DNA of 64,000 bases from Gammaproteobacteria bacterium (GCA_965229565.1 OZ245888.1:37801-101800); one strand, 5' to 3'. Shown: positions 9,908-34,987, counted from the stretch's first letter. Translations and numbers: made by a program. Notes: generated from the letters alone by a model not told the origin.

Positions 9908-11890
9908 GTGAATACAGCCCTAAAGCTGGATAAAAATCTGGCTGAAAAAATACTATCAAGAAGTAACAAGCCGATAGTCATCGTTGGTACGGGACCGGTG
10001 GGCATGCGTTTTCTTAATGATTTGCTTGCCGACGGCATCAATCAGCCGGTAGTTATCTATGGCGGAGAGCCCTGGATGCCCTATAACCGGGTTCGCCTTT
10101 CTTCACTGCTGGCTGGAGAGATCAGCCACCAGGATATCCTGATTCCAGACTCGAATACTGGACCACAATCGCTAATTAAACGCTATAACTGCCGCGTCGT
10201 GCGTATCGATCCTGATAATAAACTGGTTGAAGATGAGCACGGGCAAACACAGGAATACGAAAAATTAATCCTTGCTACCGGTTCCAATGCATTCGTGCCC
10301 GAAATTCCCGGTATAAACATGAGGGGTGTTTACCAGTTTCGGGACCTAAAGGATACCGAGCACCTGATGGCCCGGCGCACAAGCAGTCGCCACACGGTAG
10401 TGTTGGGAGGAGGTTTACTGGGTCTTGAAGCCGCCCGGGCCATGCAACGTTACAGCACGCATGTATCAGTTATTGAACACAACCGTTTCCTCATGTTTCG
10501 ACAATTGGACGAAACCGCAGCAGGCATTTTCAAGCAACATGTTGAATCTATGGGCATCGATGTTTACCTGCAGGAATCAGTTAAACAGGTTCACGGCGAA
10601 GATCGTGTTACTCACATTGAATTACGTTCAGGCAAGGTACTGACCTGTGACACATTAATAGTATCTGCCGGTATTACTCCTAATATTGAACTGGCGAAGC
10701 AGGCCGGCCTGGCCTTTGGTAGAGGGATCAAGGTCAACGATGCGATGCAGACATCCAACCCTGATATATATGCAATCGGTGAATGTTGTGAGCATCAGGG
10801 ACAAATTTACGGCATTGTTGCGCCCGGTTATGAACAGGCCCTGATCGCGGCCATGAACATAGCCAGTAAACCCATGAAATACAAAGGCACGGTTCTGGCT
10901 ACCAGTCTCAAGGTTGTCGGCAAGCCTGTGTTCAGTATGGGTGATGTCGATGACAGTGTTCGTACCTACTCGACCTATACCTATCAAAAGGACGGTTTCT
11001 ATCGTCGCCTTAATGTGTATCGCGGCCGGTTACTTGGCGTTATAGCAATCGGTGAATGGTCGGAACTGATTCAACTCAAGGAACATGTCAAAAAAGGCAG
11101 GTTACTGTTTCCGTGGCAACTGCGACGTTTTACCAGTACTGGTGAGCTATGGGACAGCGATATTTTACAGGAAGTCACCCAGTGGCCTGCCGAGGCCACG
11201 GTTTGTTCGTGTAACGGCATATCTCGTGGGCAGCTCAGCAAGGAAATCAATAGCGGTTGCAGGACGATTTCACAACTTGCTGAAAAAACCGGGGCCTCCA
11301 CGGTTTGCGGTTCTTGTAAACCATTGCTGGTTAATATGCTCGGTCAGAAAGAGATTGAACCGACACGCGGCTGGAAACCATTATTGAAGGGTTCCGTGAT
11401 TGTAGTTGTTATGTGTTTCGTCGCTTACCTGCTCCCGGCCATACCCTATAACGATACGGTCCAGGTATCCTGGCGCTGGGACATGCTGTGGACCGAAAGC
11501 CTGTTCAAGCAGATCAGCGGTTTCACACTTCTGGCCATGTCTGTCCTGGTATTAATCCTGTCATTACGCAAGCGAATCAAATGGATCTCATGGGGAGATT
11601 TTCCAATCTGGCGCCTGCTTCATGCCCTGCTCGGCGGTAGCGCTATTTTTGTCCTGTTAATACATACCGGTTTTCGCCTTGGCGACAATCTGAATTTTTA
11701 TCTGATGATGAGTTTTACGTCGCTGTTATTGGTTGGCGCAATTATCGGTTCCGTGATTGCCATGGAACATAAGCTGGCCGCAAGCACAGTAAGACAGTTA
11801 AGAAATATCGGAACCTGGCTGCACATACTCCTGTTCTGGCCAATTCCAGTGTTGCTCGGCTTTCATATTTTTAAAACCTATTACTTTTAA
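9908..11890 (+). CDS. NirB-N-terminal-like NAD(P)H flavoprotein (FAD/NAD + BFD 2Fe-2S) fused to a C-terminal ferric-reductase-like di-heme-b membrane domain
   Basis: GTG start. Residues 1-~470 align motif-for-motif with the NirB N-terminus: GTGPVGMRF, YNRVRLSS, ATGSNAFVP, VLGGGLLGLEAA, NPDIYAIGECC, VAPGY, and BFD cysteines CSCNGISRG...CGSCKP. The C-terminal ~190 aa has 4-5 TM helices carrying two HX13H pairs (LLHALLGGSAIFVLLIH; WLHILLFWPIPVLLGFH), as in ferric-reductase/NOX heme-b domains. Confidence 0.7.
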   Translation: MNTALKLDKNLAEKILSRSNKPIVIVGTGPVGMRFLNDLLADGINQPVVIYGGEPWMPYNRVRLSSLLAGEISHQDILIPDSNTGPQSLIKRYNCRVVRIDPDNKLVEDEHGQTQEYEKLILATGSNAFVPEIPGINMRGVYQFRDLKDTEHLMARRTSSRHTVVLGGGLLGLEAARAMQRYSTHVSVIEHNRFLMFRQLDETAAGIFKQHVESMGIDVYLQESVKQVHGEDRVTHIELRSGKVLTCDTLIVSAGITPNIELAKQAGLAFGRGIKVNDAMQTSNPDIYAIGECCEHQGQIYGIVAPGYEQALIAAMNIASKPMKYKGTVLATSLKVVGKPVFSMGDVDDSVRTYSTYTYQKDGFYRRLNVYRGRLLGVIAIGEWSELIQLKEHVKKGRLLFPWQLRRFTSTGELWDSDILQEVTQWPAEATVCSCNGISRGQLSKEINSGCRTISQLAEKTGASTVCGSCKPLLVNMLGQKEIEPTRGWKPLLKGSVIVVVMCFVAYLLPAIPYNDTVQVSWRWDMLWTESLFKQISGFTLLAMSVLVLILSLRKRIKWISWGDFPIWRLLHALLGGSAIFVLLIHTGFRLGDNLNFYLMMSFTSLLLVGAIIGSVIAMEHKLAASTVRQLRNIGTWLHILLFWPIPVLLGFHIFKTYYF

Positions 11891-11907
11891 GTGAACCCTG
11901 AAACTGA

Positions 11908-13359
11908 ATGCTCAAAAACAAAAATCTATGGCTATGGTTGATATGGCTTTTACTCACGCTTGCATTTACAACATACCTGGTAATGAAGATTAATAACAAG
12001 GCGGCAGATAAATCAATTTTTCTCCCTGGTGAAACCACGCACGGTCATCATCAAATAGAACTCGCCTGCGGAGCCTGCCATAGCAAATCGTTTGCTGACA
12101 AGGAAGCAATACAGGAGTCCTGCATGAATTGTCATGGCAAGGCATTAAAAGACAATGATGACAAACATCCAAAAAGCAAGTTTACCGACCCACGTAATGC
12201 CGAACGTGTTGCGATACTGGATGCCCGCTATTGCGTCACCTGCCATATAGAACACAACCCGGAAGTTACATTGGAAATGGGCGTGACCATGCCGCCTGAC
12301 TATTGCCACCTCTGTCATGAAAAAATCGCGGAGGAACGCCCCAGTCATGAAGGTATGGCATTTACCACCTGTGCTTCGGCCGGTTGTCATAACTACCACG
12401 ACAACCAGGCACTGTATGAAGACTACCTGATCAAGCATTTACATCAGCCCGATATCCTCGATAAACAGGAATTTCCGCCGGACTTGAACCTTGATGAACT
12501 CGCACCGGTATTACCCGAGTATCCGATCAAGGATTATCCGCTCGAACGCCTGAAACTGGTCGATGCGAATGCGCCACTAAATATTGAATACGACGCCGAG
12601 ATTCTATACGAATGGTTTGACACCACGCATGCCAACTCCGGTGTGAACTGTACTGCCTGCCACCAGCAAACAATTAATGAAAAGACGGTATGGACCGACA
12701 CGCCCGATCACAAGGTTTGTGCAAGTTGCCATGGACCCGAGGTAGATGGCTTCCTGGCAGGCAAACATGGTATGCGCCTGGATAGCGAAAGACTAAAACA
12801 GGAACTCACAGCAATGACACCCGACCTGGCACGTCTCCCGATGAAGAAAGACGTGCAACACAAGGAGCTGGGTTGTAACAGTTGCCATGAAGCACACGAC
12901 TATAACACCACCACGGCCCGGGTAGAGGCCTGCCTGGGTTGCCATGATGATGAACACAGCCTGGCCTATATCGATTCGCCACACCATAAACTCTGGAAAC
13001 AGGAACTGGCGGGTGAACTACCCGAACACAGTGGCGTTACCTGTGCCACCTGTCATATGCCACGAATAGAAAAGGAATTCATGGACGGCATGTTTTACAT
13101 GGGCATCGTGCAACACAACCAGAACGACACACTGCAACCAAATGAAAAGATGCTGCGACCGGTATGCATGGACTGCCATGGACTGGGCTTTGGCATTGAT
13201 GCCCTTGCCGATGAAAAACTGATTCATAACAACTTCGACGGGCAGCCAGGCGTTCATATTGAAAGCATGGACATGGCCGAAGTCCGCATGAAAGAAGCAG
13301 AGGAAAAGAGGAGACGTCTACGCGAGCAGGCTAAAGACGAAAATTCACCAACCCCATAA
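11908..13359 (+). CDS. Membrane-anchored multiheme cytochrome c with 10 CXXCH motifs plus one CX4CH
   Basis: N-terminal TM anchor (LWLWLIWLLLTLAFTTYLV). Heme motifs: CGACH, CMNCH, CVTCH, CHLCH, CASAGCH, CTACH, CASCH, CNSCH, CLGCH, CATCH, CMDCH. Several occur as doubled CXXCH pairs. 483 aa. Confidence 0.8.
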   Translation: MLKNKNLWLWLIWLLLTLAFTTYLVMKINNKAADKSIFLPGETTHGHHQIELACGACHSKSFADKEAIQESCMNCHGKALKDNDDKHPKSKFTDPRNAERVAILDARYCVTCHIEHNPEVTLEMGVTMPPDYCHLCHEKIAEERPSHEGMAFTTCASAGCHNYHDNQALYEDYLIKHLHQPDILDKQEFPPDLNLDELAPVLPEYPIKDYPLERLKLVDANAPLNIEYDAEILYEWFDTTHANSGVNCTACHQQTINEKTVWTDTPDHKVCASCHGPEVDGFLAGKHGMRLDSERLKQELTAMTPDLARLPMKKDVQHKELGCNSCHEAHDYNTTTARVEACLGCHDDEHSLAYIDSPHHKLWKQELAGELPEHSGVTCATCHMPRIEKEFMDGMFYMGIVQHNQNDTLQPNEKMLRPVCMDCHGLGFGIDALADEKLIHNNFDGQPGVHIESMDMAEVRMKEAEEKRRRLREQAKDENSPTP

Positions 13360-13386
13360 AAAAACCAGCACTACAGGAGAAGTAAA

Positions 13387-13971
13387 ATGTTAAAACTGAA
13401 AAAAGTCATGATTACGGCCACACTGGTAGCAGCTTGTGCCCTGCCATTCACAGCATCGTCGGAGATAGCCGATACACCGACGTTTACGCCCAAGCAGTTG
13501 GCCGACTGGCTACACCTGGTTATGTCGACTGACCGGGCGGTTTATACCAAGAAGATTGTGAACAGACTGGTAAAGAAGGACAAGGTCATCAAGGCCAGCG
13601 AGCATTTTGAAGATGACAAGGCCCTGGTATTACCGGCACAGATGTTCCGCTTCGGTGCAGAAGAAGTCGCCAAGAAAACGGACCAGTTTACCTATTCTCT
13701 GCAATCACTATGGCCTATCAACAAGCAGAACGCCCCGCGCACTGAAATAGAAAAGGCCGGCCTCGCCTATGTTAGCGAGAACAAGGGAGAAAACTACTAC
13801 GGTGTTGAAGAACTCGGGGGCACCCAGTATTTCACCGCCGTGTATGCCGACCCCGCTGTTGCGCCTGTTTGTGTCAGCTGTCATAACGAACACAAGGACA
13901 CACCAAAGAGTGATTTCAAACTGGGTGATGTTATGGGCGGCGTGGTGATTCGTATACCTCTGAAGGGCTAA
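13387..13971 (+). CDS. Periplasmic heme-binding protein, DUF3365/Tll0287-like
   Basis: Signal peptide followed by a single C-terminal CVSCHNEH heme motif and GDVMGGVVIRIP. The overall length and motif placement match the DUF3365 family (assignment from memory of family features). Confidence 0.5.
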   Translation: MLKLKKVMITATLVAACALPFTASSEIADTPTFTPKQLADWLHLVMSTDRAVYTKKIVNRLVKKDKVIKASEHFEDDKALVLPAQMFRFGAEEVAKKTDQFTYSLQSLWPINKQNAPRTEIEKAGLAYVSENKGENYYGVEELGGTQYFTAVYADPAVAPVCVSCHNEHKDTPKSDFKLGDVMGGVVIRIPLKG

Positions 13972-13975
13972 CGAA

Positions 13976-14338
13976 ATGCGTTCTGCCATCACATTATCCA
14001 TGACTTTGTGCCTGATGCCTTTTTTCGTACACGCAGACGAAAGCCGGTATCGGGATTTTGACAGCGATCACCTGATTTTTGGCAAAAAAGTCTGGATTGA
14101 AACATGTGAAGGCTGCCACGGCTGGGGAATAGGTGGTGCACCTATTCCCCTCCACTACGACCAATGGGAAGACCGCATCGCCAAGGGTAAAGACATCCTG
14201 TACCAGCATGCTATCGATGGATACTTTGGACCCGATGACAGCATGATGCCCGAGCGTGGCGGTAACCCGGAACTCAGTGACGAAGAAGTCAAAGCTGCCG
14301 TGGATTACATGGTTGAACTGGCAAAAAGTCACCAATAA
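13976..14338 (+). CDS. Monoheme class I cytochrome c (c5/c-553-like)
   Basis: Signal peptide, a single CEGCHG heme motif, a downstream Met ligand region (MMPERGG). 120 aa. Confidence 0.7.
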   Translation: MRSAITLSMTLCLMPFFVHADESRYRDFDSDHLIFGKKVWIETCEGCHGWGIGGAPIPLHYDQWEDRIAKGKDILYQHAIDGYFGPDDSMMPERGGNPELSDEEVKAAVDYMVELAKSHQ

Positions 14339-14358
14339 ACGAGACGAGGAGAATTGCA

Positions 14359-14772
14359 ATGACCCCGAAACAAATTGAACTGGTTAGCGGCACCTGGGAA
14401 ATGGTGTTACCCATTTCAGACCAGGCTGCGGCCATGTTCTATGCCCGGCTATTTGAGATCGCGCCTGAAGTAAAACCGCTGTTTTCCGGTGATATGGAAG
14501 CACAGGGTAAGAAACTGATGCAAATGATCAACACCGCAGTGGATAACATCGAAGATGTGGAAAAGATCATTCCAGCACTTGAAGATTTGGGTAAACGCCA
14601 TGTTGGGTATGGCGTCACAGATGAACACTACGCCCAGGTGGCAGAAGCATTACTATGGACCCTGGAGCAAGGGCTGGGTGACGCTTTTACAGAGGATGTG
14701 AAACAGGCGTGGACGGAAACCTACATGACGCTGGCAGGCGTCATGATTGAGGCTTCAAAGGAAGCTGCTTAA
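14359..14772 (+). CDS. Single-domain bacterial hemoglobin (Vitreoscilla/Cgb-like globin)
   Basis: FYARLFEIAPEVKPLF resembles the VHb helix B/C region FYKNLFAKHPEVRPLF. A proximal His lies in GKRHVGYGVTDEHY. 137 aa, no signal peptide. Confidence 0.65.
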   Translation: MTPKQIELVSGTWEMVLPISDQAAAMFYARLFEIAPEVKPLFSGDMEAQGKKLMQMINTAVDNIEDVEKIIPALEDLGKRHVGYGVTDEHYAQVAEALLWTLEQGLGDAFTEDVKQAWTETYMTLAGVMIEASKEAA

Positions 14773-14839
14773 GTGAGAAACAACGTGACCAGGGACGGTC
14801 ATTACCGTGTACCGCAATGCAACCGTCTGTATACCATGT

Positions 14840-14870
14840 AAAAAAAACCCGCCAATGGCGGGTTTTTTTA
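14840..14870. terminator. Bidirectional Rho-independent terminator
   Basis: AAAAAAAA-CCCGCC-AAT-GGCGGG-TTTTTTTT. It ends the plus-strand redox operon and the convergent minus-strand small gene. Confidence 0.8.
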
Positions 14871-14886
14871 TTTCCTTAACCTGTGA

Positions 14887-15111
14887 TTACTCGGTAATCA
14901 CTACTTCAGCAGAGCCTTCAGCTTCTGAAGACGTACCAAGCTCTGCATTACAGTCCAGGATGAAGTTATCATATTCTTCACCAGCCAGACCAAGTTCTGC
15001 AGCTTCCTGTTCGCAGGTCATATCCACAACCTGGCCTTCCTCTGCAACAGCACGGGAAGAATAAACCATGCCTGACAGGCACAGGATTAGTAGTAGTTCT
15101 AACGATTTCAT
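14887..15111 (-). CDS. Small secreted acidic hypothetical protein (74 aa, 2 Cys)
   Basis: Signal peptide MKSLELLLILCLSGMVYSSRAVA followed by an acidic mature region. No recognisable family. Confidence 0.35.
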   Translation of the reverse strand: MKSLELLLILCLSGMVYSSRAVAEEGQVVDMTCEQEAAELGLAGEEYDNFILDCNAELGTSSEAEGSAEVVITE

Positions 15112-15416
15112 ACGTAAATCCTCAATAACAGTTAACAGTAAATTTCACTAACCATTACCTGGATCCAGCTTCGGCGGGCTTTTGGAGGCTACTTGGAAAG
15201 AAGGGCTTCTATACCAGTCTAGACACTTTACAAACTGCTTGGCAGTTCCAATTATTGGCAGCAGATTTATACGCCTGGCCAATTTACCTGTCAATGGGAT
15301 TTATACGGCGGCAGGCATACCCCGACTAGAAAGCGAATAGTGAGTCCTTTCATGTTCAGCTTCAATTCAGCTTACCTTCCTATACTCCTCCCATCTTTCA
15401 ACTTATTGGAGATTAA

Positions 15417-15776
15417 ATGATGAAAAACAGCAGTAAATACCTGTTAATTGCCGGGGGTATCGCGTTAGGTACCGTGGGCGGTATAACGATTGGCGTCTCA
15501 AGTGCGGACGATTTACATGAAGTCGCCCGGGCGCCACAGGACTTTATCCAGAAGGTAAACGGAAATAGCCCCAAAAAACCACTGTTACCGATTAACAAGA
15601 TCATCGGTCAATACGAAAACGATGGCAGCCAGGTCACGGAAATCGAGCTGGACCGCGAACTGTTCCGGGATGTTTACGAACTGGAACTTGTCGATGCCAG
15701 TGGCCAGGGCTGGGATATCGATGTAGATGCCCGAACTGGAGAGGAATTATCAAAATACAAGGATTGGGACGACTAG
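15417..15776 (+). CDS. PepSY-domain protein (membrane-anchored), BqsP-like
   Basis: N-terminal anchor followed by a PepSY signature (TEIELDRELFRDVYELELVDASGQGWDIDVDARTGEEL). Confidence 0.6.
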   Translation: MMKNSSKYLLIAGGIALGTVGGITIGVSSADDLHEVARAPQDFIQKVNGNSPKKPLLPINKIIGQYENDGSQVTEIELDRELFRDVYELELVDASGQGWDIDVDARTGEELSKYKDWDD

Positions 15777-15838
15777 TTCATTGTCGTATTATAGCCCGGT
15801 AACCTCAGGTTGCCGGGCCAATACCTGAAAAGCTGGAG

Positions 15839-16216
15839 ATGAAAATGAGAAATGTAATACTGATACTTGGAGGCCTGCTACTTATGGCTATTCAGCCCGG
15901 CATGGCAGCAACGAGTGAAAAAGGGCTCTCCCCGTTTGATATTGTACAACTGGAACAGATGGTAATCGTTGCCGAAGCCGATTTCTCGGCCGATGAAATT
16001 AAGCAGTTGAAAGACTCTGGTAACATCATGCCGCTCGAATCCATCCTGCAACTGGTACAAAAGAATTATGAGGGCCGGATCATCGAGGTTGAACTTGATA
16101 AAGAAGACAAAACGTATGTCTACGAAATAGAACTCGTCGATGATAATAATATTGTCTGGGAACTGGAAGTTGACGCGGCAACCGGCAAAGTGCTTAAACG
16201 TGAGCAGGACGACTAA
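15839..16216 (+). CDS. PepSY-domain periplasmic protein, BqsQ-like
   Basis: Signal peptide followed by a PepSY signature (IIEVELDKEDKTYVYEIELVDDNNIVWELEVDAATGKVL). Confidence 0.6.
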   Translation: MKMRNVILILGGLLLMAIQPGMAATSEKGLSPFDIVQLEQMVIVAEADFSADEIKQLKDSGNIMPLESILQLVQKNYEGRIIEVELDKEDKTYVYEIELVDDNNIVWELEVDAATGKVLKREQDD

Positions 16217-16881
16217 TGCGAATATTGCTGGTTGAAGATGACGTAGCACTGGCCAATGATCTGCAAAAAAAGCTACTTCAATCAGGATTCGTGGTAGACG
16301 TTAGCCATGACGGCATCGATGGTAAATTCAGGGCAGATACTGAATCCTATGATGCGGTCATTCTTGACCTGGGTTTGCCCGGCCAACCCGGCATAGAAGT
16401 CTTGCAACAGTGGCGCAACGATAATAATGACATTCCCGTATTAATACTGACCGCACGTGGTGCCTGGCACGAAAAAGTCGATGGCTTCAAGGCTGGTGCC
16501 GATGATTACCTAAGCAAACCATTCCATGTTGAGGAACTCATAGCCCGCCTGCAGGCTTTGATACGACGCCGAAATGGGCGTGCCGGGGCAACGTTAACGG
16601 CAGCCGGCCTCACACTGGATGAAGACACACAGCAACTCACGCTTGCCAACAACAGCAGCGTCGATCTCACCGCCACTGAATTTCGTATGCTCTCGTACCT
16701 GATGCAACATCCGGACAAGATCCTATCCAAATCGCGCCTGATAGAGCATGTACTGGCCAGCGACTCTGCCGGAGATGAAAATCTTATCGAGGTTTACATC
16801 AATCGGTTGCGACGCAAGATAGGCCCTGGGAAGATCGAGACACGACGCGGACAGGGATACATATTAAAGGACACGGATTGA
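16216..16881 (+). CDS. OmpR-family two-component response regulator
   Basis: REC domain (MRILLVEDDVALA...ILDLGLPG) plus a winged-helix C-terminus (RLRRKIGPGKIETRRGQGYIL). Its stop overlaps the kinase gene start. Confidence 0.85.
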   Translation: MRILLVEDDVALANDLQKKLLQSGFVVDVSHDGIDGKFRADTESYDAVILDLGLPGQPGIEVLQQWRNDNNDIPVLILTARGAWHEKVDGFKAGADDYLSKPFHVEELIARLQALIRRRNGRAGATLTAAGLTLDEDTQQLTLANNSSVDLTATEFRMLSYLMQHPDKILSKSRLIEHVLASDSAGDENLIEVYINRLRRKIGPGKIETRRGQGYILKDTD

Positions 16882-18206
16882 AATCATTAAAGGCACGTCT
16901 TGGGATAGAACTGGTTATCGCACTCATCGTTGTGTTCGCACTGCAGTGGGCACTGGTCAGTTATTTTATCAAGTACGTTACAGAAACCTATATCACTTCG
17001 CGTATCGAACATGACATTGATGTACTGCTAGCCAACATTGTTATAAACGAACAAGGCAATATAACGCTGGCCCGAGAACCGGAAGGAAGGTATAGCGAGG
17101 GACCATTTACCGGCCACTATTACGTGATCAGGGCCAACAACGAGATTTTACGCTCCCGCTCACTCTGGGATCAGTCTCTGGATATCAATACTGTTGGTGT
17201 TGGCGCTACATCCCTGCAACGTCTCCGGGGTCCGCTGGAACAGCCCTTGCTGATGGTAACCAAGGGCTTCAACAAGCTGTATACCGATATCAATGTGACC
17301 GTGGCCGAAGACATCACAACCCTGAATAGCGGCATCAAGACAATGCAGTCAGCATACTTGCTATTGTCGTCATGTCTGCTGTTATTGCTGTTATTGTCAC
17401 AACAGTGGATCGTGCATCGAGCATTAAAGTCACTAACTACGACCCGCCTGAACCTTGAGCGCGTCAGTCGTGGAGATACAGACAATTTGTCCGAGGCTGT
17501 TCCTGACGAAGTGTTACCACTGGTTCAGGAAATCAACCTGCTACTTGAATTATTATCGCGCCGTTTGCAAAAAACCCGTACGGCCGTGGGTAATCTTGCG
17601 CATTCGCTAAAGACGCCGTTAAGCCTTTTAAAAAATATAAAAGATGATCCGGCAATAAAAAACGAAACTGAATTATTAACTACCCTGGACAAACAAATCG
17701 AATCGATCCAGGTCACGCTGGAACGTGAACTGAATCGTGCCAGGCTTGCTGGCGATGCCAAATCCGGGCAGCGTTTTCTGCCGGGCAAGGAATTACCAGC
17801 ATTGGTTGAAACCCTGGAGCAAATATATAAAGAGCAGAACCTGGAAATTGTATTGGTCAACCAGCAACAAACCAGTTGGAACGCAGACCGCGAAGATATG
17901 CTGGAACTGTTCGGCAACCTCGCGGACAACGCCTGCAAATGGGCAAAATCAACAGTGACAATCACATTGGGCACTCAGCCTGGCCAGTTCACCATTGAGG
18001 ACGATGGCCCGGGCTTTCCTGCCGACCAGATCGAGTTGCTAAGCCAGCGCGGCCAACGCCTGGACGAATCTATACAGGGTCACGGACTGGGACTATCTAT
18101 TGTTCATGATATCGTGCAGTTTTATAAGGGTACGATTGAATTCGAACCATCTGCCGAGATAGGTGGGTTGCTTGTAAAGGTAAAACTCTTTAATAACCAG
18201 GAGTGA
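16878..18206 (+). CDS. Sensor histidine kinase with two TM helices and a periplasmic loop containing REPEGRYSE
   Basis: TM1, a ~140 aa periplasmic region, TM2 (LLLSSCLLLLLLL), HisKA H-box (LAHSLKTPLSLL) and HATPase_c (GHGLGLSIV). Confidence 0.8.
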   Translation: MKSLKARLGIELVIALIVVFALQWALVSYFIKYVTETYITSRIEHDIDVLLANIVINEQGNITLAREPEGRYSEGPFTGHYYVIRANNEILRSRSLWDQSLDINTVGVGATSLQRLRGPLEQPLLMVTKGFNKLYTDINVTVAEDITTLNSGIKTMQSAYLLLSSCLLLLLLLSQQWIVHRALKSLTTTRLNLERVSRGDTDNLSEAVPDEVLPLVQEINLLLELLSRRLQKTRTAVGNLAHSLKTPLSLLKNIKDDPAIKNETELLTTLDKQIESIQVTLERELNRARLAGDAKSGQRFLPGKELPALVETLEQIYKEQNLEIVLVNQQQTSWNADREDMLELFGNLADNACKWAKSTVTITLGTQPGQFTIEDDGPGFPADQIELLSQRGQRLDESIQGHGLGLSIVHDIVQFYKGTIEFEPSAEIGGLLVKVKLFNNQE

Positions 18207-18324
18207 TGTGTCGCTAGCAGATAATACTTCCAAACTTACATAGTGTTTATTGCTGGTATCTCATTCGTAAGCTATTGTCTGTTTGTCCAATTTTTCAGCA
18301 ACGATCTAAGCTAAAGATACAAAG

Positions 18325-18816
18325 TTAAAAATCATCGTTCTCCGGATCGACTATGTTATTCAACACATATTTCATAGATATCGGTTTTAGCTTTCTTATA
18401 CGCCCTGGTGATAACTGTCCGGATATTGCGTCCAGCGTTTTCGCTGCATTCATGTTGCCCTGTTTATAAGCCGCGTATAACCAAACATAGGCTTGCTCAA
18501 AGTCACGATTGCCCAATACACCAGATTCATAAAGGACACCGAGATTACGTTGCGCCTCGGGATTGCCGGATTTTGCCGATAATTCATACCATTTCAATGC
18601 CTGCCTGATATCACGCCGGACACCCAGACCAAGGTAGTATTGAATACCCAGATAATTCTGGGCCGTGCTATCACCCATCTTTGCTTGCTCTTTCCACAAC
18701 CGGAACGATGTCGCATAGTCGCCCTGGTCAAAGGCCTGCTTCGGGTCTACTTCATTATTACACCCCGTCAGCACTATCAAAAATAATAATACAATTATGT
18801 TGATCTGTTTTATCAA
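18325..18816 (-). CDS. Sel1-repeat (TPR-like) lipoprotein
   Basis: Lipobox LTGC followed by Sel1 repeats (AQNYLGIQYYLGLGVRRDIRQALKWYELSAKSGNPEAQRNLGVLYESG). Confidence 0.7.
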   Translation of the reverse strand: MIKQINIIVLLFLIVLTGCNNEVDPKQAFDQGDYATSFRLWKEQAKMGDSTAQNYLGIQYYLGLGVRRDIRQALKWYELSAKSGNPEAQRNLGVLYESGVLGNRDFEQAYVWLYAAYKQGNMNAAKTLDAISGQLSPGRIRKLKPISMKYVLNNIVDPENDDF

Positions 18817-19602: not shown

Positions 19603-19662
19603 TTCTCGTCCCACCAACAGTAATCCATAAAAAAAACCACCTTGCGGTGGCTTTCTTATGGA

Positions 19663-19739
19663 TGGCGCGCCCGGAGGGACTCGAACCCCCAACCCTCGGG
19701 TTCGAAGCCCGATACTCTATCCAGTTGAGCTACAGGCGC
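19663..19739 (-). tRNA. tRNA-Arg, anticodon TCG
   Basis: Reverse complement GCGCCTGTAGCTCAACTGGATAGAGTATCGGGCTTCGAACCCGAGGGTTGGGGGTTCGAGTCCCTCCGGGCGCGCCA folds as a cloverleaf with a 7-bp acceptor stem and anticodon loop CTTCGAA. A T-run terminator lies downstream on the minus strand (19631-19656). Confidence 0.75.
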
Positions 19740-19827
19740 GGCGTATAACCCGGTGTAGTTGGGCGCCATTCTAGCACAATCCTGCTGGACGAAAATGCCC
19801 CTGTTTGCCGCCCTGCAAGCCAGAAAC

Positions 19828-19841
19828 TTGATCTGAATCAA
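19828..19841 (+). promoter_or_regulatory. Consensus FNR/ANR-type box TTGAT-CTGA-ATCAA upstream of hemN
   Basis: Perfect TTGATnnnnATCAA match centred ~70 nt upstream of the hemN start codon. Confidence 0.6.
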
Positions 19842-19903
19842 TCTGCCAACAGCCCTGCTGGCCTAGTATTACAGACACTCAACTGTGAGACCAGGAAACC
19901 CGC

Positions 19904-22602: not shown

Positions 22603-22724
22603 ATTCTACACAATAAGCATAGATCAAATTTTCTACCTGTCATCCCCGGGACGGACACATTTTTCAAAAGAAATGATAATGAATTACCGCAATTTCTTTA
22701 CAATCAAATACTTCACCCCAAGTG

Positions 22725-24044
22725 TTAAGACTGGGTGTCGTTATCCAGGTGCTTTAGCCTCAGAAACACCCTTTCGGCGGTAACTATCAGAGCCATCCCT
22801 ATTATGGCTGCCCATAAAATTAATACATCTGTTTGCGCCTTGACTATCAAGAATGCACAAAGTACGACTACATCCAGCACAATTGCGATGACCAGAATTA
22901 CCGGGTTCGCATTGATGTCCTTATAAAGATAACGTAGCACACCCCAGTGTATGACGATGTCCATAATGATATAAAATATAGCTCCGAGTGATGCAATACG
23001 ACTCAGATCGAAAAACACAGTAAGCAAGATGGCGATGACTACCGTATAAACCAGGGTATGTTTCTGGATGCTACCAGGCATGCCAAAATGGCTGTGTGGT
23101 ACCAGTTTCATGTCTGTCAGCATGGCCAGCATCCTGGAGACCGCAAATACACTTGCTATCACTCCGGATACCGTCGCAATGATTGCAAATCCAACTGTAA
23201 ACCAGAGGCCGTAGTCTCCAAACACAGGACGGGCAGCCTGGGCCAATGAATAATCCCTGGCCTTGACAATTTCATCAATTGACAAGTTGCCACCAACGGC
23301 AAGCGAGACAAGCAGGTAAAGACACACGCAGATGACCAGAGAAATGATAATCGCACGCCCTACATTACGATGCGGATCCTTTATCTCACCGCCACTATTC
23401 GTAATCGTGGTAAATCCCTTGTAGGCAAGAATGCCAAGAGCAACAGCCCCCAGAAAGCCACTTACTGACGTGTCTTCTGGTGTAACTGAAATGCTATCAA
23501 AACTGAAGCCTGATGCATATAACCCTCCGGCAGCCAGGATCACTAACCCACCAATCTTGACGAAGGCCATAAAGAAAGAAAACGTTTGAATAAACTTGTT
23601 GCTAAGAATATTAACCAGGAATGCAAATACCAGTAACGCCACGCCTAGCGCGGGCACAAGCCAGGAGTCAGTTCCCGTATCAAATAGTTGTAACGTATAG
23701 GTGCCGAATGTACGCGCGACAAGACTCTCATTGATGACCATGGAGAAATACATCAACAGTGCAGAGACAGCGGTAACAGCACCCTTGCCATAGGCCTTTT
23801 CCAGGAACATGGCGATGCCACCTGCACTGGGATAGGCATTGGCCATTTTTACATACGAATAGGCACTAAAGCCTGCTACCACAGCCGCCGCAAGAAATGC
23901 CAGGGGGAACCATTCTCTGGCAAGTTCGGCTACCTGTCCCGTTAAGGCAAATATTCCTGCACCGATCATGACACCGGTGCCCATGGATACAGCACCCACA
24001 AGACTAAGGCTGTCCTTATTGTAATGGTTATCGTGATTATTCAT
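22725..24044 (-). CDS. APC-family amino acid permease
   Basis: 12 predicted TM helices with an APC signature near the N-terminus (SLVGAVSMGTGVMIGAGIFALTG). Confidence 0.75.
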   Translation of the reverse strand: MNNHDNHYNKDSLSLVGAVSMGTGVMIGAGIFALTGQVAELAREWFPLAFLAAAVVAGFSAYSYVKMANAYPSAGGIAMFLEKAYGKGAVTAVSALLMYFSMVINESLVARTFGTYTLQLFDTGTDSWLVPALGVALLVFAFLVNILSNKFIQTFSFFMAFVKIGGLVILAAGGLYASGFSFDSISVTPEDTSVSGFLGAVALGILAYKGFTTITNSGGEIKDPHRNVGRAIIISLVICVCLYLLVSLAVGGNLSIDEIVKARDYSLAQAARPVFGDYGLWFTVGFAIIATVSGVIASVFAVSRMLAMLTDMKLVPHSHFGMPGSIQKHTLVYTVVIAILLTVFFDLSRIASLGAIFYIIMDIVIHWGVLRYLYKDINANPVILVIAIVLDVVVLCAFLIVKAQTDVLILWAAIIGMALIVTAERVFLRLKHLDNDTQS

Positions 24045-24108
24045 ATAAATAAGATACTTTAAAATAAGGGTTTAGACATGATTGTCAAATAAAATGTCTG
24101 CATCACTT

Positions 24109-24291
24109 CTATTGGCTACGAATTGAGATTCCCATCGTTACCGGCCGAGGTTTTAACCGAGTGTTTGGCAAAATGGAACCAGTAAAAGTCTTTGCATAAA
24201 CAGGAACCATCATATTTAAACTGGTCATCATCCCTGTCGCAGCCATCAACTTAAGTAACTTCCGGCGTTTTAAATAGTACTTGTCTTGCAT
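24109..24291 (-). pseudogene. 60-codon remnant encoding only a twin-arginine signal peptide
   Basis: MQDKYYLKRRKLLKLMAATGMMTSLNMMVPVYA has a Tat-like RRKLLK n-region and h-region, but the ORF ends after 60 aa in an AT-rich non-coding stretch. Confidence 0.25.
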
Positions 24292-24557
24292 TTTTCACTC
24301 CAAAATAATATAGTTTTGCTTCAACTAGGAAATTAATCATCATTAATATCAAATAACTATCCTCTTTTTAAATTAACATTGGTTAGAATTTGAAGACTCC
24401 AGCCTTCAAGTAAATTTGTATAACATGCAATTATTCGACAATATCAATTACTCCAAGCCTTGTTTATTAAAGTAATATTGAATTCACCTGCTTCTACAAA
24501 AATAGTCCGGTTTTCGTTAGCGCCATACTTAAAAAAGATCCGTTTTAAAAGTTAAGG

Positions 24558-24908
24558 TTAATCTTTTTTGTTATTTCCCTTGGTATTTACAGAAGAAAAT
24601 CCTTGTCTTAATTCATAGCTTATACTTAAACTCAAAACGGTCCTTACCAGGATTACCGATGCCAGTAATGCAATGTGTTCTATGGTGGGAGTATGTATTG
24701 TAGCAAGGATATCTGCTGCTATAAGGAATTCCAGCGCAAAAACCAATCGCTGACAAAATTGTAGACGGAGTGGTTCGACATCATTATTGAGCCCCTTATT
24801 CAACCATGTATGTATTAGATCATACAATGACAAACTGGCCGCTCCGACAATGAACAGGCCCCCAACCCCTTCCAGAATCAATATCATTATATTCAGTAAT
24901 ATTTCCAT
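24558..24908 (-). CDS. Small membrane protein (DUF1622-like)
   Basis: 116 aa with three TM helices. Last gene of the minus-strand redox operon, 17 nt after the cytochrome gene. Confidence 0.4.
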   Translation of the reverse strand: MEILLNIMILILEGVGGLFIVGAASLSLYDLIHTWLNKGLNNDVEPLRLQFCQRLVFALEFLIAADILATIHTPTIEHIALLASVILVRTVLSLSISYELRQGFSSVNTKGNNKKD

Positions 24909-24925
24909 AATGTATTCACCTTATG

Positions 24926-25690
24926 TTAATGATGCTTATACCAACCGATTTTAGGAATATCATTCCAGTCGTTGGTTTTATGACAGATAAAACATTGAGT
25001 GACATCTGCATGTTTCACGTCGGCTACTTTCATTGACACCATCTTGAAATGTTCCATGTAATGGCTGGGCGGTGCCTGATGACATTGGGCGCAATCCGTT
25101 GACTTCGAACTGGGATGGAGAAATTCGGGGATAGTCCATGTGATGGTTGAATGGCATGTAGTACAGTCTGTGCCAAACAGGTCACGATGAGGGTCTTCAT
25201 TGGAATGACAACTAGCGCAGTTTAACCATGTTTCCTGAACTGATATACGTGCATGTGGTGCTGACATCTTTTCCAGATGGAGTTTTTTATCGACCGACAG
25301 CTCATTACTACCAATCCTTGCCAGCGTCACATGGTTCATTTCCGTCGGGCGCCGTTCACTATCCAGATGCTCGATATGACAGCTACGACAATTGCCTATC
25401 TCTGCATGAAAAGCGGTGGATTGCTTACCCAGTAACGTCTGGTTGCTAGCATGGCAGGTGATGCAGTTAAGCGGTTCCGGTCCCTTAACGGCAGTATGGC
25501 AGGCGGCACAGTTATGCTCCAGAAAAGTATGACCTGCCGATAAGGGACCGGGGCTGGCCATGCGTTGCCAGGTATTCGCGTCCAGCCAACCTGTGATCGT
25601 ATCGTCAGGATGTGGCTTTCCATATTGTGCCCACAGTAAGAGAATGCCGACTATCACTATCGAGCACAGCAAATATGGCCAGAGTTTCAT
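24926..25690 (-). CDS. Heptaheme cytochrome c, periplasmic with an N-terminal anchor
   Basis: ORF-track start at 25810 rejected in favour of the ATG at 25690 (MKLWPYLLCSIVIVGILLLWA), which overlaps the upstream gene stop as ATGA. Heme motifs: CAACH, CITCH, CRSCH, CASCH, CTTCH, CAQCH, CFICH, including doubled-CXXCH pairs. Confidence 0.75.
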   Translation of the reverse strand: MKLWPYLLCSIVIVGILLLWAQYGKPHPDDTITGWLDANTWQRMASPGPLSAGHTFLEHNCAACHTAVKGPEPLNCITCHASNQTLLGKQSTAFHAEIGNCRSCHIEHLDSERRPTEMNHVTLARIGSNELSVDKKLHLEKMSAPHARISVQETWLNCASCHSNEDPHRDLFGTDCTTCHSTITWTIPEFLHPSSKSTDCAQCHQAPPSHYMEHFKMVSMKVADVKHADVTQCFICHKTNDWNDIPKIGWYKHH

Positions 25691-26445
25691 GTAAACCACC
25701 TCAGCCCGAAATGTATGCCCCCCCAAATATGCAGAACCAGAAGACCGTAAAGAACAAACGCAATGGTGATATGAAACCTGAGCCACCACTGGAATGCGGA
25801 TTTGAACCATTCATGCATCCTGATTGCATACTCAACCTCGGCCATAGCATCGGCTAGAGCGAGTGCTCGCAAGTGCGGTAAACTTCCTTGCCCAATGTCT
25901 TCCCGTAACAAAATCCGGTTGGCGATCCAGCGTGTGAACAGACCGGAAAACGGACGTACCAGTGCAGCCTGTCCCTGATTGGTAGCCAACTCAGAGGCGA
26001 CCTGACGGTAATTGATTTCCAGTTCGGTAAGTATCTCTTTCTTTTCACTGATAGTTTGCGAAAAACGTTTCAACAAGTAACGGCCTACAAATCCGCTCAG
26101 CACTACCACCAGTGTCATCCCCGTAAGTGCAATACCCAGAGTGCTATCGAATTTGTGGCTTGAATGGATGATTACTAGAATAGGTCCCAGCACCCCGGCG
26201 TAAATATGCCAGGCCAGCAAGGTTCGCATGGAAACAAACTGTGTAACCCAGCGATTAAGTAGCTTAACGCGCTTCACCACAAGATAAACCAATGGAACCA
26301 GCATCAACACTGCACCTGTCACACCAAATACGCCACCCCAAAGACTACCGGCAAATCGCGGAGATTGATGAAACAGGAATCCCAGCCAGAAGATCAGCAT
26401 TAACAAAACTAGCGCTGTGACTATGATCGGTTCGCGCTCCTTCAT
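25687..26445 (-). CDS. Ferric-reductase-domain-like di-heme-b integral membrane protein
   Basis: ~6 TM helices with two HX13H pairs (HIYAGVLGPILVIIH; HITIAFVLYGLLVLH). Translationally coupled to the flavoprotein gene upstream (ATGA) and the heptaheme gene downstream (ATGA). Confidence 0.6.
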   Translation of the reverse strand: MKEREPIIVTALVLLMLIFWLGFLFHQSPRFAGSLWGGVFGVTGAVLMLVPLVYLVVKRVKLLNRWVTQFVSMRTLLAWHIYAGVLGPILVIIHSSHKFDSTLGIALTGMTLVVVLSGFVGRYLLKRFSQTISEKKEILTELEINYRQVASELATNQGQAALVRPFSGLFTRWIANRILLREDIGQGSLPHLRALALADAMAEVEYAIRMHEWFKSAFQWWLRFHITIAFVLYGLLVLHIWGGIHFGLRWFT

Positions 26446-28337
26446 GCTTTCACCAATATGTCGCCGGATGCCTTAGCCTGGCATGCGAGAATAATGTTTT
26501 TCTCCTTATCTCCCGGTTGCAAGCCGTCCTCAACAGCCATGCTGACTTTACCAGCGAGTAATTCCACCCGACACAGACCACACACGCCCGACCGGCAGGA
26601 GAAGTCAATGTCCACTCCCAAATCTTCGGCTACGTCCAGCACCACCTTGTCTGGAGATAGTTGCCCGGCTTTGTTCGAATCCGTAAAAGTCACAGTGGAC
26701 AACTCTTCCGCTGTTGTTTCCAAACCCTCCAGATTCACATTCTGATCAGCTTTAGGTGTCCGCTCCTGTTTACCAAGAGCAGGGCCAAAGGCTTCAGTCT
26801 TGATACGATCAGTCGGGACACCCAGATCAGCCAGCAGCTGTTTTGTAGCCTCCATCATGGGTACCGGACCACAAATGTGTATGTAACGTGTCGGCAGATC
26901 AGGCACGCTTGCAACAATCAGATCTTTGGTAATATGCCCCTTTTGTCCTGACCATTCTGTTCCCTCGCTTTGCCCCACAGTGATAACGACGTGCAGATTA
27001 GCGTGACGGCGCTGCAGGTAGTCCAGTTCTTCACGGAATATGATGTCGGCGGGGCTGCGGCAACCATAAATAAGGAAAATATCGCCATCCCAACTACGAT
27101 CCGTAAGATAACGCAATACACTCATAAGAGGAGTAATCCCGACTCCTCCGCCAATCAGCAAAATGCATTTACATTCACGGCCAGTGAAAACAAGGGAACC
27201 ACTTGGACCTGAAAGATCCAGTAAATCCCCTTCTTGTACTTTCGTATGCAGATGTCCCGATACCTGCCCTTCCGGTGCTAGTTTAACCGTAATTTCAATG
27301 TAATCCCTTTGCGTAGGAGAAGAGGCAATCGTATAGCTTCGACGGTCAATAGATCCGTTGTTTGAAACGGCAACGGTAATAAATTGACCAGGAAGAAAAT
27401 CAAACGGCAGAAAGCCGCCAGCAGGGTTCATGAGTCGGAAAGTCTTGACGTCGGCAGTCTCCTGAAATATACGGCCTACACGCAACTGTCCCGACCAACG
27501 TTTGCCGCTATGTCTGGGAACTGCTGTAAGTATTTTTTCAGGTTGACTATCCGGTTGCTCTGCAAGACGAAAATTTATACCTTGTTCATCATCACGGTTT
27601 ATCTCCGTCAGGTTGTGTAAGAGTTGCGATGCTCGCCGCATCTTTAGAAAGTAGATCCACAGAAAACCCGCAATGAAGACAATCGAACTGAACATAATCC
27701 AGAAATGAAACCAGGATACTCCCAAGATTGCAGACTCTTTCTGAACAGAAACCGGACCGGGAAGTTCCATTTCCCTCCGGAACCAGTCGAGTGCTATTGC
27801 TTGTGGATCATCGATGCCGGAAAGGGCACGATGCGCTGCAAGGCCGCTCTCGAAACGGGCCATGCCCTCATGCAATAGATCTACCGCCTGTTGTATCGTT
27901 TCATAATCATCGGTAGCAACGGAATCAGCAAGACGGTTTAGTCCATCCGTCATTAGTTCAGTTCCACTTGCCATGCGTTCATTAGCTGCAGATTCAACCT
28001 CCTCTCGTTTTTCCTGCGTAAGAACGGCCAGTGTCATGAGTGAAGGGTAAATTTCCTTAGGCGGTGGCACACCCATATTGCGCATCATCTCTCCCATAGC
28101 TTCCATTGGTCCCGGAGCTGTTGCCGGTCCCGGTAAAGATGAGGCAGAGTCCTGTTGTGACATTGATGGAGGACCGGGATGGTGCGCATTATGCTCCTCA
28201 GGCGATACCCCTGCCTGGGTTATTCTTACAGAGAATATAAGCAGCATAAGCAATATTGATAGTGAGACACGGCTGCGTGAATGGAAAAATCTAAAGATGT
28301 TCACAGCTCTCACTTTCTTATGTAGTTGTTTATCCAT
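26442..28337 (-). CDS. Membrane-anchored FNR-type flavin reductase with a C-terminal 2Fe-2S ferredoxin domain and an N-terminal His/Met-rich periplasmic domain
   Basis: - Signal peptide.
- ~190 aa periplasmic region (EEHNAHHPGPP...MEAMGEMMRNMGVPPP).
- One TM helix.
- FAD site RSYTIASSP.
- NAD site LLIGGGVGITP.
- C-terminal CRSGVCGLCRV plant-type ferredoxin motif. Confidence 0.65.
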   Translation of the reverse strand: MDKQLHKKVRAVNIFRFFHSRSRVSLSILLMLLIFSVRITQAGVSPEEHNAHHPGPPSMSQQDSASSLPGPATAPGPMEAMGEMMRNMGVPPPKEIYPSLMTLAVLTQEKREEVESAANERMASGTELMTDGLNRLADSVATDDYETIQQAVDLLHEGMARFESGLAAHRALSGIDDPQAIALDWFRREMELPGPVSVQKESAILGVSWFHFWIMFSSIVFIAGFLWIYFLKMRRASQLLHNLTEINRDDEQGINFRLAEQPDSQPEKILTAVPRHSGKRWSGQLRVGRIFQETADVKTFRLMNPAGGFLPFDFLPGQFITVAVSNNGSIDRRSYTIASSPTQRDYIEITVKLAPEGQVSGHLHTKVQEGDLLDLSGPSGSLVFTGRECKCILLIGGGVGITPLMSVLRYLTDRSWDGDIFLIYGCRSPADIIFREELDYLQRRHANLHVVITVGQSEGTEWSGQKGHITKDLIVASVPDLPTRYIHICGPVPMMEATKQLLADLGVPTDRIKTEAFGPALGKQERTPKADQNVNLEGLETTAEELSTVTFTDSNKAGQLSPDKVVLDVAEDLGVDIDFSCRSGVCGLCRVELLAGKVSMAVEDGLQPGDKEKNIILACQAKASGDILVKA

Positions 28338-34985: not shown

Positions 34986-34987
34986 GA

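Follow-up and report, generated by a model that had tools for sequence, protein, structure and literature searches.

Two Operons With the Same Redox Parts

The 64,000-nucleotide stretch of DNA analyzed here (the window), from a Gammaproteobacteria bacterium (GCA_965229565.1, OZ245888.1:37801-101800), contains two separate operons built from the same kinds of redox protein, i.e., an NAD(P)H flavoprotein with a [2Fe-2S] centre, a membrane domain of five predicted helices with two HX13H motifs, and a membrane-anchored multihaem cytochrome c that carries 11 haems in one operon (module 1) and 7 in the other (module 2). These parts had been pointed out in an original prediction made from the sequence alone, and domain scans and motif reading have located all of them in both modules. 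As it had stated, the flavoproteins belong to different classes (Pyr_redox_2/NirB N-terminal type in module 1 vs. FAD_binding_6/NAD_binding_1/Fer2 in module 2), and the membrane domain, named here the b domain, is fused in module 1, within a protein of 660 amino acids (aa), and free-standing in module 2 (252 aa). It had overlooked that about 9.8 kb of unrelated genes (14.8-24.5 kb) separate the two modules.

The two HX13H motifs are by themselves common, being found in 15 of the 342 stop-to-stop open reading frames (ORFs) of the window. They go beyond chance here, because the histidines are invariant and fall on the third and fifth predicted helices, and because the order of the genes is conserved. 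We have surveyed 84 loci for module 1 and, for module 2, the 80 best loci of a genome scan with one genome per species. The gene of the 11-haem cytochrome lies immediately 3' of the fusion gene in 80/84 module 1 loci, and the heptahaem gene lies directly downstream of the b gene in 76/80 module 2 loci. Each module is a conserved operon whose association with multihaem cytochromes is kept elsewhere, which confirms that neither of them is an annotation artefact or a one-off fusion.

Module 1: A Reductase Fused to the Membrane Domain

The module 1 operon comprises the following genes and domains, all on the + strand (TM, transmembrane helix; FAD, flavin adenine dinucleotide):

9908-11890 (+): fusion protein, 660 aa; NirB-type reductase, BFD-like [2Fe-2S] domain and five-TM domain
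about 9971-11098 (+): cytoplasmic FAD/NAD(P)H reductase of the NirB N-terminal type (Pyr_redox_2, E 6.5e-57; Rubredoxin_C)
11198-11341 (+): BFD-like [2Fe-2S] domain (Fer2_BFD, residues 431-478)
11363-11887 (+): five-TM dihaem-b-type domain; H572/H586 on TM3, H639/H653 on TM5
11908-13359 (+): membrane-anchored periplasmic undecahaem cytochrome c, 483 aa; ten CXXCH motifs and one CX4CH (C155-H161)
13387-13971 (+): periplasmic stand-alone Tll0287-like/sCache_haem protein; one CXXCH (PF11845, E 1.7e-20)
13976-14338 (+): periplasmic monohaem cytochrome c, an optional operon member
14359-14772 (+): cytoplasmic single-domain globin, like the globin domain of the flavohaemoglobin Hmp (Pfam Globin, E 2.6e-19)

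The C-terminal 175 residues of the fusion belong to no Pfam family and form five predicted helices with the pairs H572-x13-H586 and H639-x13-H653, all four histidines being invariant in 43 full-length homologues. This membrane domain is joined to the [2Fe-2S] domain by a linker of about 13 residues before TM1. The BFD cysteines C433, C467, and C470 are invariant, and C435 is present in at least 90% of the homologues. When the model of the whole fusion was searched with Foldseek, the flavoprotein fold alone was recovered, resembling that of putidaredoxin and rubredoxin reductases, with no match to the membrane domain.

The fusion has over 120 relatives that match along its full length (about 660 aa), including one encoded on chromosome 2 of Cupriavidus necator H16, where the operon lies at about 1,070,065-1,074,600 of AM260480.1. 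A profile search with the b domain yielded 959 clusters at the 50% identity level, and the 150 matches listed in the search of the whole library are all close relatives. The flavoprotein is fused to the b domain in all 46 informative cases among the 84 module 1 loci.

The possibility that the fusion is a NirB was considered and rejected. The NirB model TIGR02374 gives 392 bits, below its cut-off of 578, and is covered over positions 1-468 of 794, and no NIR_SIR Pfam match was found in the protein. Since the sirohaem/4Fe-4S NIR_SIR domains are absent, the fusion is not a NirB. It should be mentioned that the public gene call (P0182, 628 aa) begins at about 10004. The deposited protein looks N-terminally truncated, and the GTG at 9908 fits better as the start codon because it lies directly after the terminator of the leader described below, and because the public start misses the GxGxxG FAD-binding motif.

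All 11 haem motifs of the cytochrome encoded at 11908-13359 are invariant in 31 homologues, and the protein scores 26.5 bits with Paired_CXXCH_1 (cut-off 20.6). Profile searches also match parts of it to NrfA (E 3e-9) and to octahaem nitrite reductase (ONR) (E 1.4e-8), each over 60-80 residues. A true NrfA/ONR enzyme was rejected, since these matches are local only and the CXXCK motif is absent from the cytochrome, all 11 motifs ending in His. The lack of CXXCK, together with 12 further invariant histidines in the family, leaves no evident catalytic site.

Among the 50 module 1 loci with enough downstream sequence, the Tll0287-like gene is present in all 50, the globin gene in 46, and the monohaem cytochrome gene in 21. 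The globin aligns to positions 3-139 of the nitric oxide (NO)-inducible flavohaemoprotein model. Directly after module 1, the region 15417-18206 (+) encodes two small PepSY-domain proteins, both secreted, and then a two-component system with a response regulator of the OmpR type and a PhoQ-like histidine kinase. The PepSY pair and the two-component system were rejected as parts of the operon, as they are found in 2/84 loci.

Module 2: A Split Version

Module 2 is encoded on the - strand:

26442-28337 (-): flavoprotein, 631 aa (FAD_binding_6, NAD_binding_1 and Fer2)
about 28337-27723 (-): N-terminus of the flavoprotein; signal peptide and periplasmic His/Met-rich helical domain, then one TM helix
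about 27488-26778 (-): cytoplasmic FNR-type FAD/NAD(P)H domains of the flavoprotein
about 26693-26445 (-): C-terminal plant-type [2Fe-2S] ferredoxin domain of the flavoprotein
25687-26445 (-): free-standing five-TM dihaem-b-type protein, 252 aa; H80/H94 on TM3, H225/H239 on TM5
24926-25690 (-): membrane-anchored periplasmic heptahaem cytochrome c, 255 aa from MKLWPY; seven CXXCH motifs, conserved in 73 homologues
24558-24908 (-): DUF1622 membrane protein (Pfam E 6.1e-19), an occasional fourth gene, present in 12/80 genomes and in a Methylophaga plasmid copy

The flavoprotein is itself anchored to the membrane, a feature that the original prediction did not notice. Its periplasmic part carries the motifs SPEEHxxHHP and MxxMGxMMxxMG...YPSLM. 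This N-terminal domain is conserved in 78/80 genomes, and among 84 FNR-like ORFs the HxxHH(P) motif is present in 78 and MxxM in 68. The order FAD_binding_6, NAD_binding_1, Fer2 matches that of the phthalate-dioxygenase-reductase (PDR) type, and the best NCBIfam match is GbcB, with 246 bits against a cut-off of 500. Unlike the module 2 flavoprotein, GbcB-type reductases lack the signal peptide, the periplasmic domain and the TM helix.

In the 252-aa protein, the pairs H80-x13-H94 and H225-x13-H239 are invariant in 61 homologues. TM4 carries the sequence SGFVG. About 90 residues inserted between TM4 and TM5, which are helical and cytoplasmic, distinguish this family from the b domain of module 1. 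Further invariant or near-invariant histidines of the family are H26 and H97, at the periplasmic ends of TM1 and TM3, and H211, located 14 residues before H225 on a cytoplasmic extension of TM5; they could form an extra metal or cofactor site. The protein has 1926 significant database matches, many of them with about 60% identity across distant phyla.

Relatives of module 2 were found in 217 genomes. The FNR-type gene is directly upstream of the b gene in 79/80 loci, and this gene order spans Planctomycetota, Nitrospirales, Legionella, Verrucomicrobiota, and Gammaproteobacteria. Both gene junctions of the module in the window are 4-nt ATGA overlaps, suggesting translational coupling. In about 15 planctomycete and Hydrogenedentota loci, the b protein is extended at its C-terminus by about 300 residues that are predicted to lie in the periplasm and contain a DUF547 domain (E 5e-18) with the sequence VSCAAVSCP (L016, 7983-9635; L008, L017-L019, L022, L032, L044, L046, L053, L064, L072, L074, and L075).

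Interchange of the Flavoprotein

The original prediction had also argued that the same three-part logic was assembled independently in the two modules. The strongest support for this proposal is the finding that the NAD(P)H module has been swapped while the b domain and the cytochrome c stay. Four longer proteins with the b domain of module 1 (P0374, P0426, P0438, and P0309, at loci L171-L174) carry another reductase, with a cyclic nucleotide (cNMP)-binding or an EF-hand domain followed by BFD, FAD_binding_6/NAD_binding_1, and the b domain. In the three contexts available, the gene after the FNR-type fusion always encodes a protein homologous to the 11-haem cytochrome, with 42% identity (E 7e-133), and a Tll0287-like gene adjoins the fusion in two of them. 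Thus, the class of flavoprotein is interchangeable, and the pairing of b domain and cytochrome c is constant. The fusions to cyclic nucleotide-binding or EF-hand domains suggest a direct control of electron export by second messengers or calcium.

Nitrate-Linked Context of Module 1

Module 1 is preceded by a leader and lies beside a nitrate-assimilation cluster on the opposite strand:

9802-9894 (+): 5' leader of module 1, with two hairpins, an intrinsic terminator and T8
9802-9822 (+): first hairpin
9836-9847 (+): second hairpin, GAC-AAAGGC-GTC (3-bp stem, hexaloop)
9842-9886 (+): terminator, followed by T8 at 9887-9894
1-9254 (-): nitrate-assimilation cluster
window start (-): true NirB, running off the start of the window
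1362-5616 (-): nitrate ABC transporter
5921-7219 (-): NasS-like protein
7219-7926 (-): NasT-like ANTAR regulator
7956-9254 (-): 432-aa protein of no Pfam family, with homologues near module 1 in three other loci

The AAAGGC hexaloop hairpin overlaps the 5' arm of the terminator, and the fold of the leader with its terminator has a z of -5.7. The same AAAGGC hairpin, terminator, and T8-T9 run are found upstream of nrtA (about 5655-5760, - strand; nrtA at 5616). Looking at 62 homologous operons, a hairpin with an A..G.. hexaloop and a T-run is present upstream of 49 (mean of 3.8 and maximum of 9 in shuffled sequences), and the dual-hairpin form upstream of 25 (0.5 in shuffled sequences). Hexaloop hairpins with an overlapping terminator are the architecture recognised by ANTAR antiterminators, and the leader of module 1 looks, by its sequence, like an antitermination leader of the ANTAR (NasT) type. 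There is no curated Rfam family for it, and an Rfam scan of the window gave only three tRNA genes, all on the - strand (19666-19739, 54149-54222, and 54446-54534), the first of which is located in the region separating the modules and might be the edge of an island.

The module 1 operon adjoins nas genes in four of five genomes examined, and in the 84-locus survey NasT was found near it in 21 metagenomic loci and NasS in 15. The downstream genes are in agreement with this context, as the globin resembles that of NO-inducible proteins and the Tll0287/DUF3365 domains are haem-c Cache domains whose fused forms sense NO (bioRxiv 10.64898/2026.02.01.703092). We infer that module 1 belongs to nitrate/nitric-oxide physiology, as an NAD(P)H-driven periplasmic branch of the defence against nitrosative stress. 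Three points weigh against this assignment: the first leader hairpin in the window has a non-canonical 5-nt loop and only the second one is canonical; the stand-alone sCache_haem proteins are described as 'redox-related' and not as NO sensors (bioRxiv 10.64898/2026.02.01.703092); and the 11-haem cytochrome may be a pure electron carrier.

Copper-Linked Context and Mobility of Module 2

Module 2 ends the copper island of the window, the rest of which is listed below:

28509-28919 (-): secreted Met-rich protein of no Pfam family, directly upstream of module 2
29042-45730 (-): copper-resistance context, with the genes that follow
29042-29704 (-): monohaem cytochrome c
30150-30995 (-): CopB-like protein
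30992-32788 (-): multicopper oxidase
32835-34199 (-): glutamate dehydrogenase, inside the copper island
34332-34985 (-): ICMT-family protein
36307-38829 (-): P1B-ATPase with two HMA domains
40059-43157 (-): CusA
43161-44468 (-): CusB
44465-45730 (-): CusC

The GC content falls to 0.35-0.41 between 34 and 46 kb, and the low-GC stretch 34000-46000, with the genes for the ICMT-family protein and the P1B-ATPase and the cusCBA genes, is probably a horizontally acquired metal island. An arrangement related to it is present on plasmid pWTT2411 of Methylophaga pinxianii. On the other side of module 2, the adjoining gene encodes an amino-acid transporter of the APC family (22725-24044, -), a 59-78% identical homologue of which is found near module 2 in 8/80 genomes of unrelated phyla.

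A multicopper oxidase, CopB, P1B-ATPase or outer-membrane efflux gene lies within 8 kb of module 2 in 46/80 genomes. This figure rises to 64/80 when the Met-rich protein is included, an LTXXQ-like periplasmic protein being encoded upstream of module 2 in 48-49/80 genomes, matched to the protein of the window by type only. The module is present on 54 plasmids, 27 of them conjugative, and a Methylophaga plasmid copy adjoins genes for a P-type ATPase and a DUF411 protein. Module 2 is therefore linked to copper homeostasis and is horizontally mobile, and we favour a function as a periplasmic Cu(II) reductase that feeds Cu(I) efflux.

An alternative, although we consider it rather unlikely, is that module 2 does not reduce copper and delivers electrons to some other periplasmic task under metal or oxidative stress, such as holding Met- or Cys-rich copper-binding proteins in the reduced state, supplying a thiol-type DUF547 domain, or the reduction of Fe(III)/Mn oxides or oxygen species. 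Several observations speak for it and weaken the cupric-reductase proposal. The neighbouring multicopper oxidase would undo the reduction of Cu(II); in 34/80 genomes no canonical copper gene was found within 8 kb of module 2; an Alteromonas plasmid copy adjoins a [NiFe] hydrogenase; and about 15 planctomycete genomes encode a b protein fused to a periplasmic DUF547 domain that contains a C-x4-C motif. Moreover, the commonest enzyme neighbour is no copper gene but a glutamate dehydrogenase, encoded just upstream on the same strand in 34-35/80 genomes, which could be a dedicated source of NAD(P)H. On the other hand, the conserved His/Met-rich periplasmic domain, the frequent P1B-ATPase/CusCBA neighbours, and the metal islands on plasmids point to copper, and the related eukaryotic dihaem reductases STEAP, FRE, and Dcytb reduce Cu(II) and Fe(III).

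With one operon assigned to nitrate/NO physiology and the other to copper, the recurring system that had been proposed has to be divided: both modules do recur, as conserved operons, but they do not constitute one single system.

Relation Between the Two Membrane Domains

The comparison of the two b domains with each other indicates that they are not unrelated. Profile-profile alignment with hhalign gives E values of 2.9e-4 (global) and 3e-3 (local) with the four histidines in register, and reversed-sequence controls give 0.09-0.55. The AlphaFold2 (AF2) models show a five-helix bundle in both cases, with the His pairs on helices 3 and 5 and predicted local distance difference test (pLDDT) scores of 81 and 80.

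Their membership in known families was also studied. The proteins of the window do not match Ferric_reduct (PF01794) at E <= 0.01. In member-by-member scans, sub-threshold matches to PF01794 were obtained for 20/61 module 2 relatives (best E 1.5e-3) and 0/30 module 1 relatives, and to DUF4405 (PF14358) for 17/30 module 1 members (best E 1.2e-4) and 14/61 module 2 members (best E 0.039). None of the 30 and 61 members scanned reaches the gathering score for DUF4405 or Ferric_reduct. DUF4405 binds haem b, and its core of four histidines is common to MsrQ and PepSY-like proteins (PMC11334425). Both b domains have the two His pairs 12-14 residues apart on TM3 and TM5 that are characteristic of the ferric-reductase type, whereas the architecture of NOX proper is absent from them, as there are five helices instead of six and no fused C-terminal FAD_binding_8/NAD_binding_6. 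Our reading is that they are probably remote homologues within a broad dihaem class that is similar to DUF4405, MsrQ, and ferric reductases. Since both families fall below the Pfam thresholds, their sequences do not place them among the NOX/FRD members as these are defined. The term 'NOX-like' used in the original prediction is therefore adequate as an analogy, and it fails as a classification, in view of the Ferric_reduct threshold, the number of helices, the missing NOX-type dehydrogenase domains, and the lack of a solved relative by sequence profile.

It is unlikely, in our opinion, that the likeness between the membrane domains is convergent and that two unrelated redox operons simply share the window. 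Several results weaken the case for homology: BLASTP between the two domains gives E 0.77, though the first His pair aligns; searches of hidden Markov model (HMM) versus sequence across the two domains of the window are non-significant (E 2.9 and 8.1), although the correct regions are aligned; the hhalign probability is 10-18% only; Foldseek of the 252-aa model against the PDB gives nothing significant (SpNOX, E 2.5); and sequence-profile searches of the PDB with both b families find no relatives. The abundance of HX13H pairs in random ORFs also favours convergence, as does the fact that modules 1 and 2 are never co-localised elsewhere in the 80 module 2 and 84 module 1 loci surveyed. Nevertheless, convergence would have to account for an equal number of helices, His pairs on the same helices, four histidines in register at an E value of 3e-4 vs. 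0.09-0.55 for the reversed sequences, sub-threshold DUF4405 matches in both families, and like partners on both sides of the membrane.

A Proposed Electron-Export Chain

Periplasmic multihaem cytochromes are normally thought to be fed by quinones via CymA-, NrfH- or NapC-type proteins. The explanation that we consider the most probable, with reasonable but not high confidence and with the physiologies assigned above included in it, is that both operons follow one plan and encode a quinone-independent chain for the export of electrons. Electrons from NAD(P)H in the cytoplasm would pass through the flavin and the [2Fe-2S] centre into the five-helix protein, where two bis-His haems b would be stacked across the membrane. 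They would enter at the inner haem, and the outer one would reduce the anchored multihaem cytochrome c on the periplasmic side. The direction of the electron flow, the independence from quinones, and both terminal substrates are what we infer in this scheme, and the four histidines of each domain would be the ligands of haem b.

Module 1 (9908-14772) would be the fused version of this chain, probably expressed under the control of a nitrate/nitrite-responsive NasS-NasT antiterminator. Its low-potential electrons would most likely be delivered to the 11-haem cytochrome and the sCache_haem protein, which would reduce, on the periplasmic side, a reactive nitrogen species, be it NO, nitrite or hydroxylamine. 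NO inside the cell would be dealt with by the globin. Module 2 (24558-28337) would be the split version, whose FNR/ferredoxin-type reductase has in addition a periplasmic domain rich in His and Met. The most likely role of this module is the reduction of a metal in the periplasm, for which we favour the conversion of Cu(II) to Cu(I), or redox support for copper efflux. Besides the points raised above for each module and for the membrane domains, this explanation is weakened by the fact that haem b binding is deduced from the four histidines in both domains, by the absence of any functional study of either operon in our literature searches, and by the different model of He et al. (2017), considered next. 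The observation contained in the original prediction is confirmed, and its interpretation is partly supported.

He et al. (2017) assigned no function to this class of membrane proteins but put forward a model, bearing notably on module 2, in which the five-TM proteins are quinone-active cytochromes b (PMC5566968). Applied to our operons, the dihaem proteins would connect the quinone pool and the multihaem cytochromes in either direction, as CymA, NrfH or the cytochrome b of hydrogenases do, and the flavoproteins would be accessory or regulatory. Some of the clusters in Supplementary Table 6 of that work, which have no extra redox protein, fit this idea (PMC5566968), and so does a ubiquinone cofactor recently reported for MsrQ (PMC12525009). 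We regard it as improbable for the modules of the window, as the flavoprotein/2Fe-2S part is covalently joined to the b domain in 46/46 cases and in the FNR-type fusions, the reductase gene of module 2 overlaps the b gene and is kept in 79/80 genomes, and no quinone-site motif has been identified.

An inward flow, in which the multihaem cytochrome oxidises Fe(II), Cu(I), hydroxylamine or NO and passes the electrons to the flavoprotein or the globin, is very improbable: although PCC3/PCC4 relatives have been discussed in a setting of Fe(II) oxidation (PMC5566968) and the globin of module 1 needs a reductant, the reduction of NAD(P)+ (about -320 mV) would be uphill and against the membrane potential, as follows from established bioenergetics, and most hosts of module 2 do not oxidise iron.

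Returning to the export chain, a direct route from NAD(P)H to the periplasm would bypass the quinones and give electrons of much lower potential, and it would spend membrane energy. Such low-potential electrons, obtained at a cost in membrane energy, would suit detoxification rather than respiration. Nearly all the relatives are annotated as 'hypothetical', 'NirB' or '2Fe-2S protein'. Module 1 is a candidate for the periplasmic handling of reactive nitrogen in nitrate-assimilating aerobes, and it is carried by the genetically tractable C. necator H16. Module 2 suggests that copper resistance includes a redox step so far unrecognised, which has spread on conjugative plasmids, including those of Legionella and Alteromonas.

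A bolder version, which we put forward only tentatively and hold to be doubtful, is that both modules belong to a large class of transmembrane enzymes, so far unrecognised, that oxidise NAD(P)H and reduce cytochrome c independently of quinones, module 1 being a new NasT-controlled periplasmic reductase of NO, nitrite or hydroxylamine and module 2 a periplasmic cupric reductase spread by plasmids. If this were true, aerobic bacteria would gain low-potential electrons in the periplasm, and module 1 would protect the cells during nitrate assimilation. Module 2 would supply Cu(I) to be captured by Met-rich proteins and exported by CusCBA. It would also be the first bacterial system in copper resistance with a function corresponding to that of FRE/STEAP.

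Comparison With Known Systems

The closest precedent is the work of He et al. (2017), who described five-TM inner-membrane proteins with HX13H on TM3 and TM5 beside multihaem cytochromes in the PCC3/PCC4 clusters, and tabulated, in Supplementary Table 6, porin-less clusters of a multihaem cytochrome c, a membrane protein, and a redox protein (PMC5566968). Both modules share the features of this class, i.e., five TM helices, HX13H on TM3 and TM5, and an adjacent multihaem cytochrome c and redox protein. Concerning the motifs of these proteins, WX3H ahead of each His pair and SGXXG on TM4, module 2 has W221-x3-H225 and S117-G118-x-x-G121 but W79 directly beside H80, and module 1 has W568-x3-H572, a W-x-H on TM5, and one invariant Gly on TM4. 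Compared by their dimensions, the Bradyrhizobium and R. palustris clusters of that study are sized like module 2, with about 258 aa for the 7-haem cytochrome c, 231-235 aa for the membrane protein, and 608-702 aa for the redox protein. In contrast, the copper island, the periplasmic His/Met domain, the spread on plasmids, the NirB-type fusion with globin and sCache_haem protein, and the ANTAR leader are not part of that description. PCC4 appears to correspond to the ptdABCDEFG operon, to judge from the common list of penta-, tetra-, and decahaem cytochromes, porin, and membrane protein; this operon was described in 2024, its function being left unassigned (bioRxiv 10.1101/2023.11.21.568154).

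NOX, SpNOX, FRE, and STEAP resemble the chain proposed for the modules in that an NAD(P)H flavoprotein feeds two stacked bis-His haems b held by His pairs about 13 residues apart on helices 3 and 5. Those enzymes have six helices, whereas the modules add a 2Fe-2S centre and have a NirB- or PDR-type flavoprotein that is N-terminal or a separate chain. The outer haem of NOX, FRE, and STEAP passes electrons to O2 or a metal, and the acceptor in the modules would be a multihaem cytochrome c. MsrQ (with Fre), DUF4405 proteins, and the PepSY-like flavinylation-associated cytochromes are bacterial dihaem membrane proteins with a core of four histidines that hand electrons from the cytoplasm or the membrane to periplasmic redox partners (PMC11334425; bioRxiv 10.1101/2021.01.07.425746). 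Among Pfam families, DUF4405 is the one that matches the module 1 domain best, although below threshold. The partners of MsrQ and DUF4405 are the molybdoenzyme MsrP or ApbE-flavinylated proteins, whereas those of the modules are multihaem cytochromes c, and the donor is fused or appears translationally coupled.

Regarding module 1, the narK-bjgb-flp-nasC genes of Bradyrhizobium encode a globin and an NAD(P)H flavoprotein that, under NasS-NasT control, remove the NO arising from nitrate assimilation (PMC4724949). The flavoprotein Flp of that system is soluble and has neither a membrane haem domain nor periplasmic cytochromes, and module 1 would add a transmembrane branch with the 11-haem cytochrome c and the sCache_haem protein. 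NrfA/NrfH and the octahaem nitrite reductases are periplasmic multihaem enzymes acting on nitrite, NO, and hydroxylamine, and the module 1 cytochrome has similar local haem-motif segments. The electron input of NrfA is quinol via NrfH, whereas that of module 1 would be NAD(P)H.

To the accessible literature, the present analysis adds the reading of these clusters as fed by NAD(P)H and the swap of flavoprotein class; for module 1, the ANTAR/NasT control and the globin and sCache_haem partners; and for module 2, the setting in a copper island and on plasmids, together with the His/Met domain in the periplasm.

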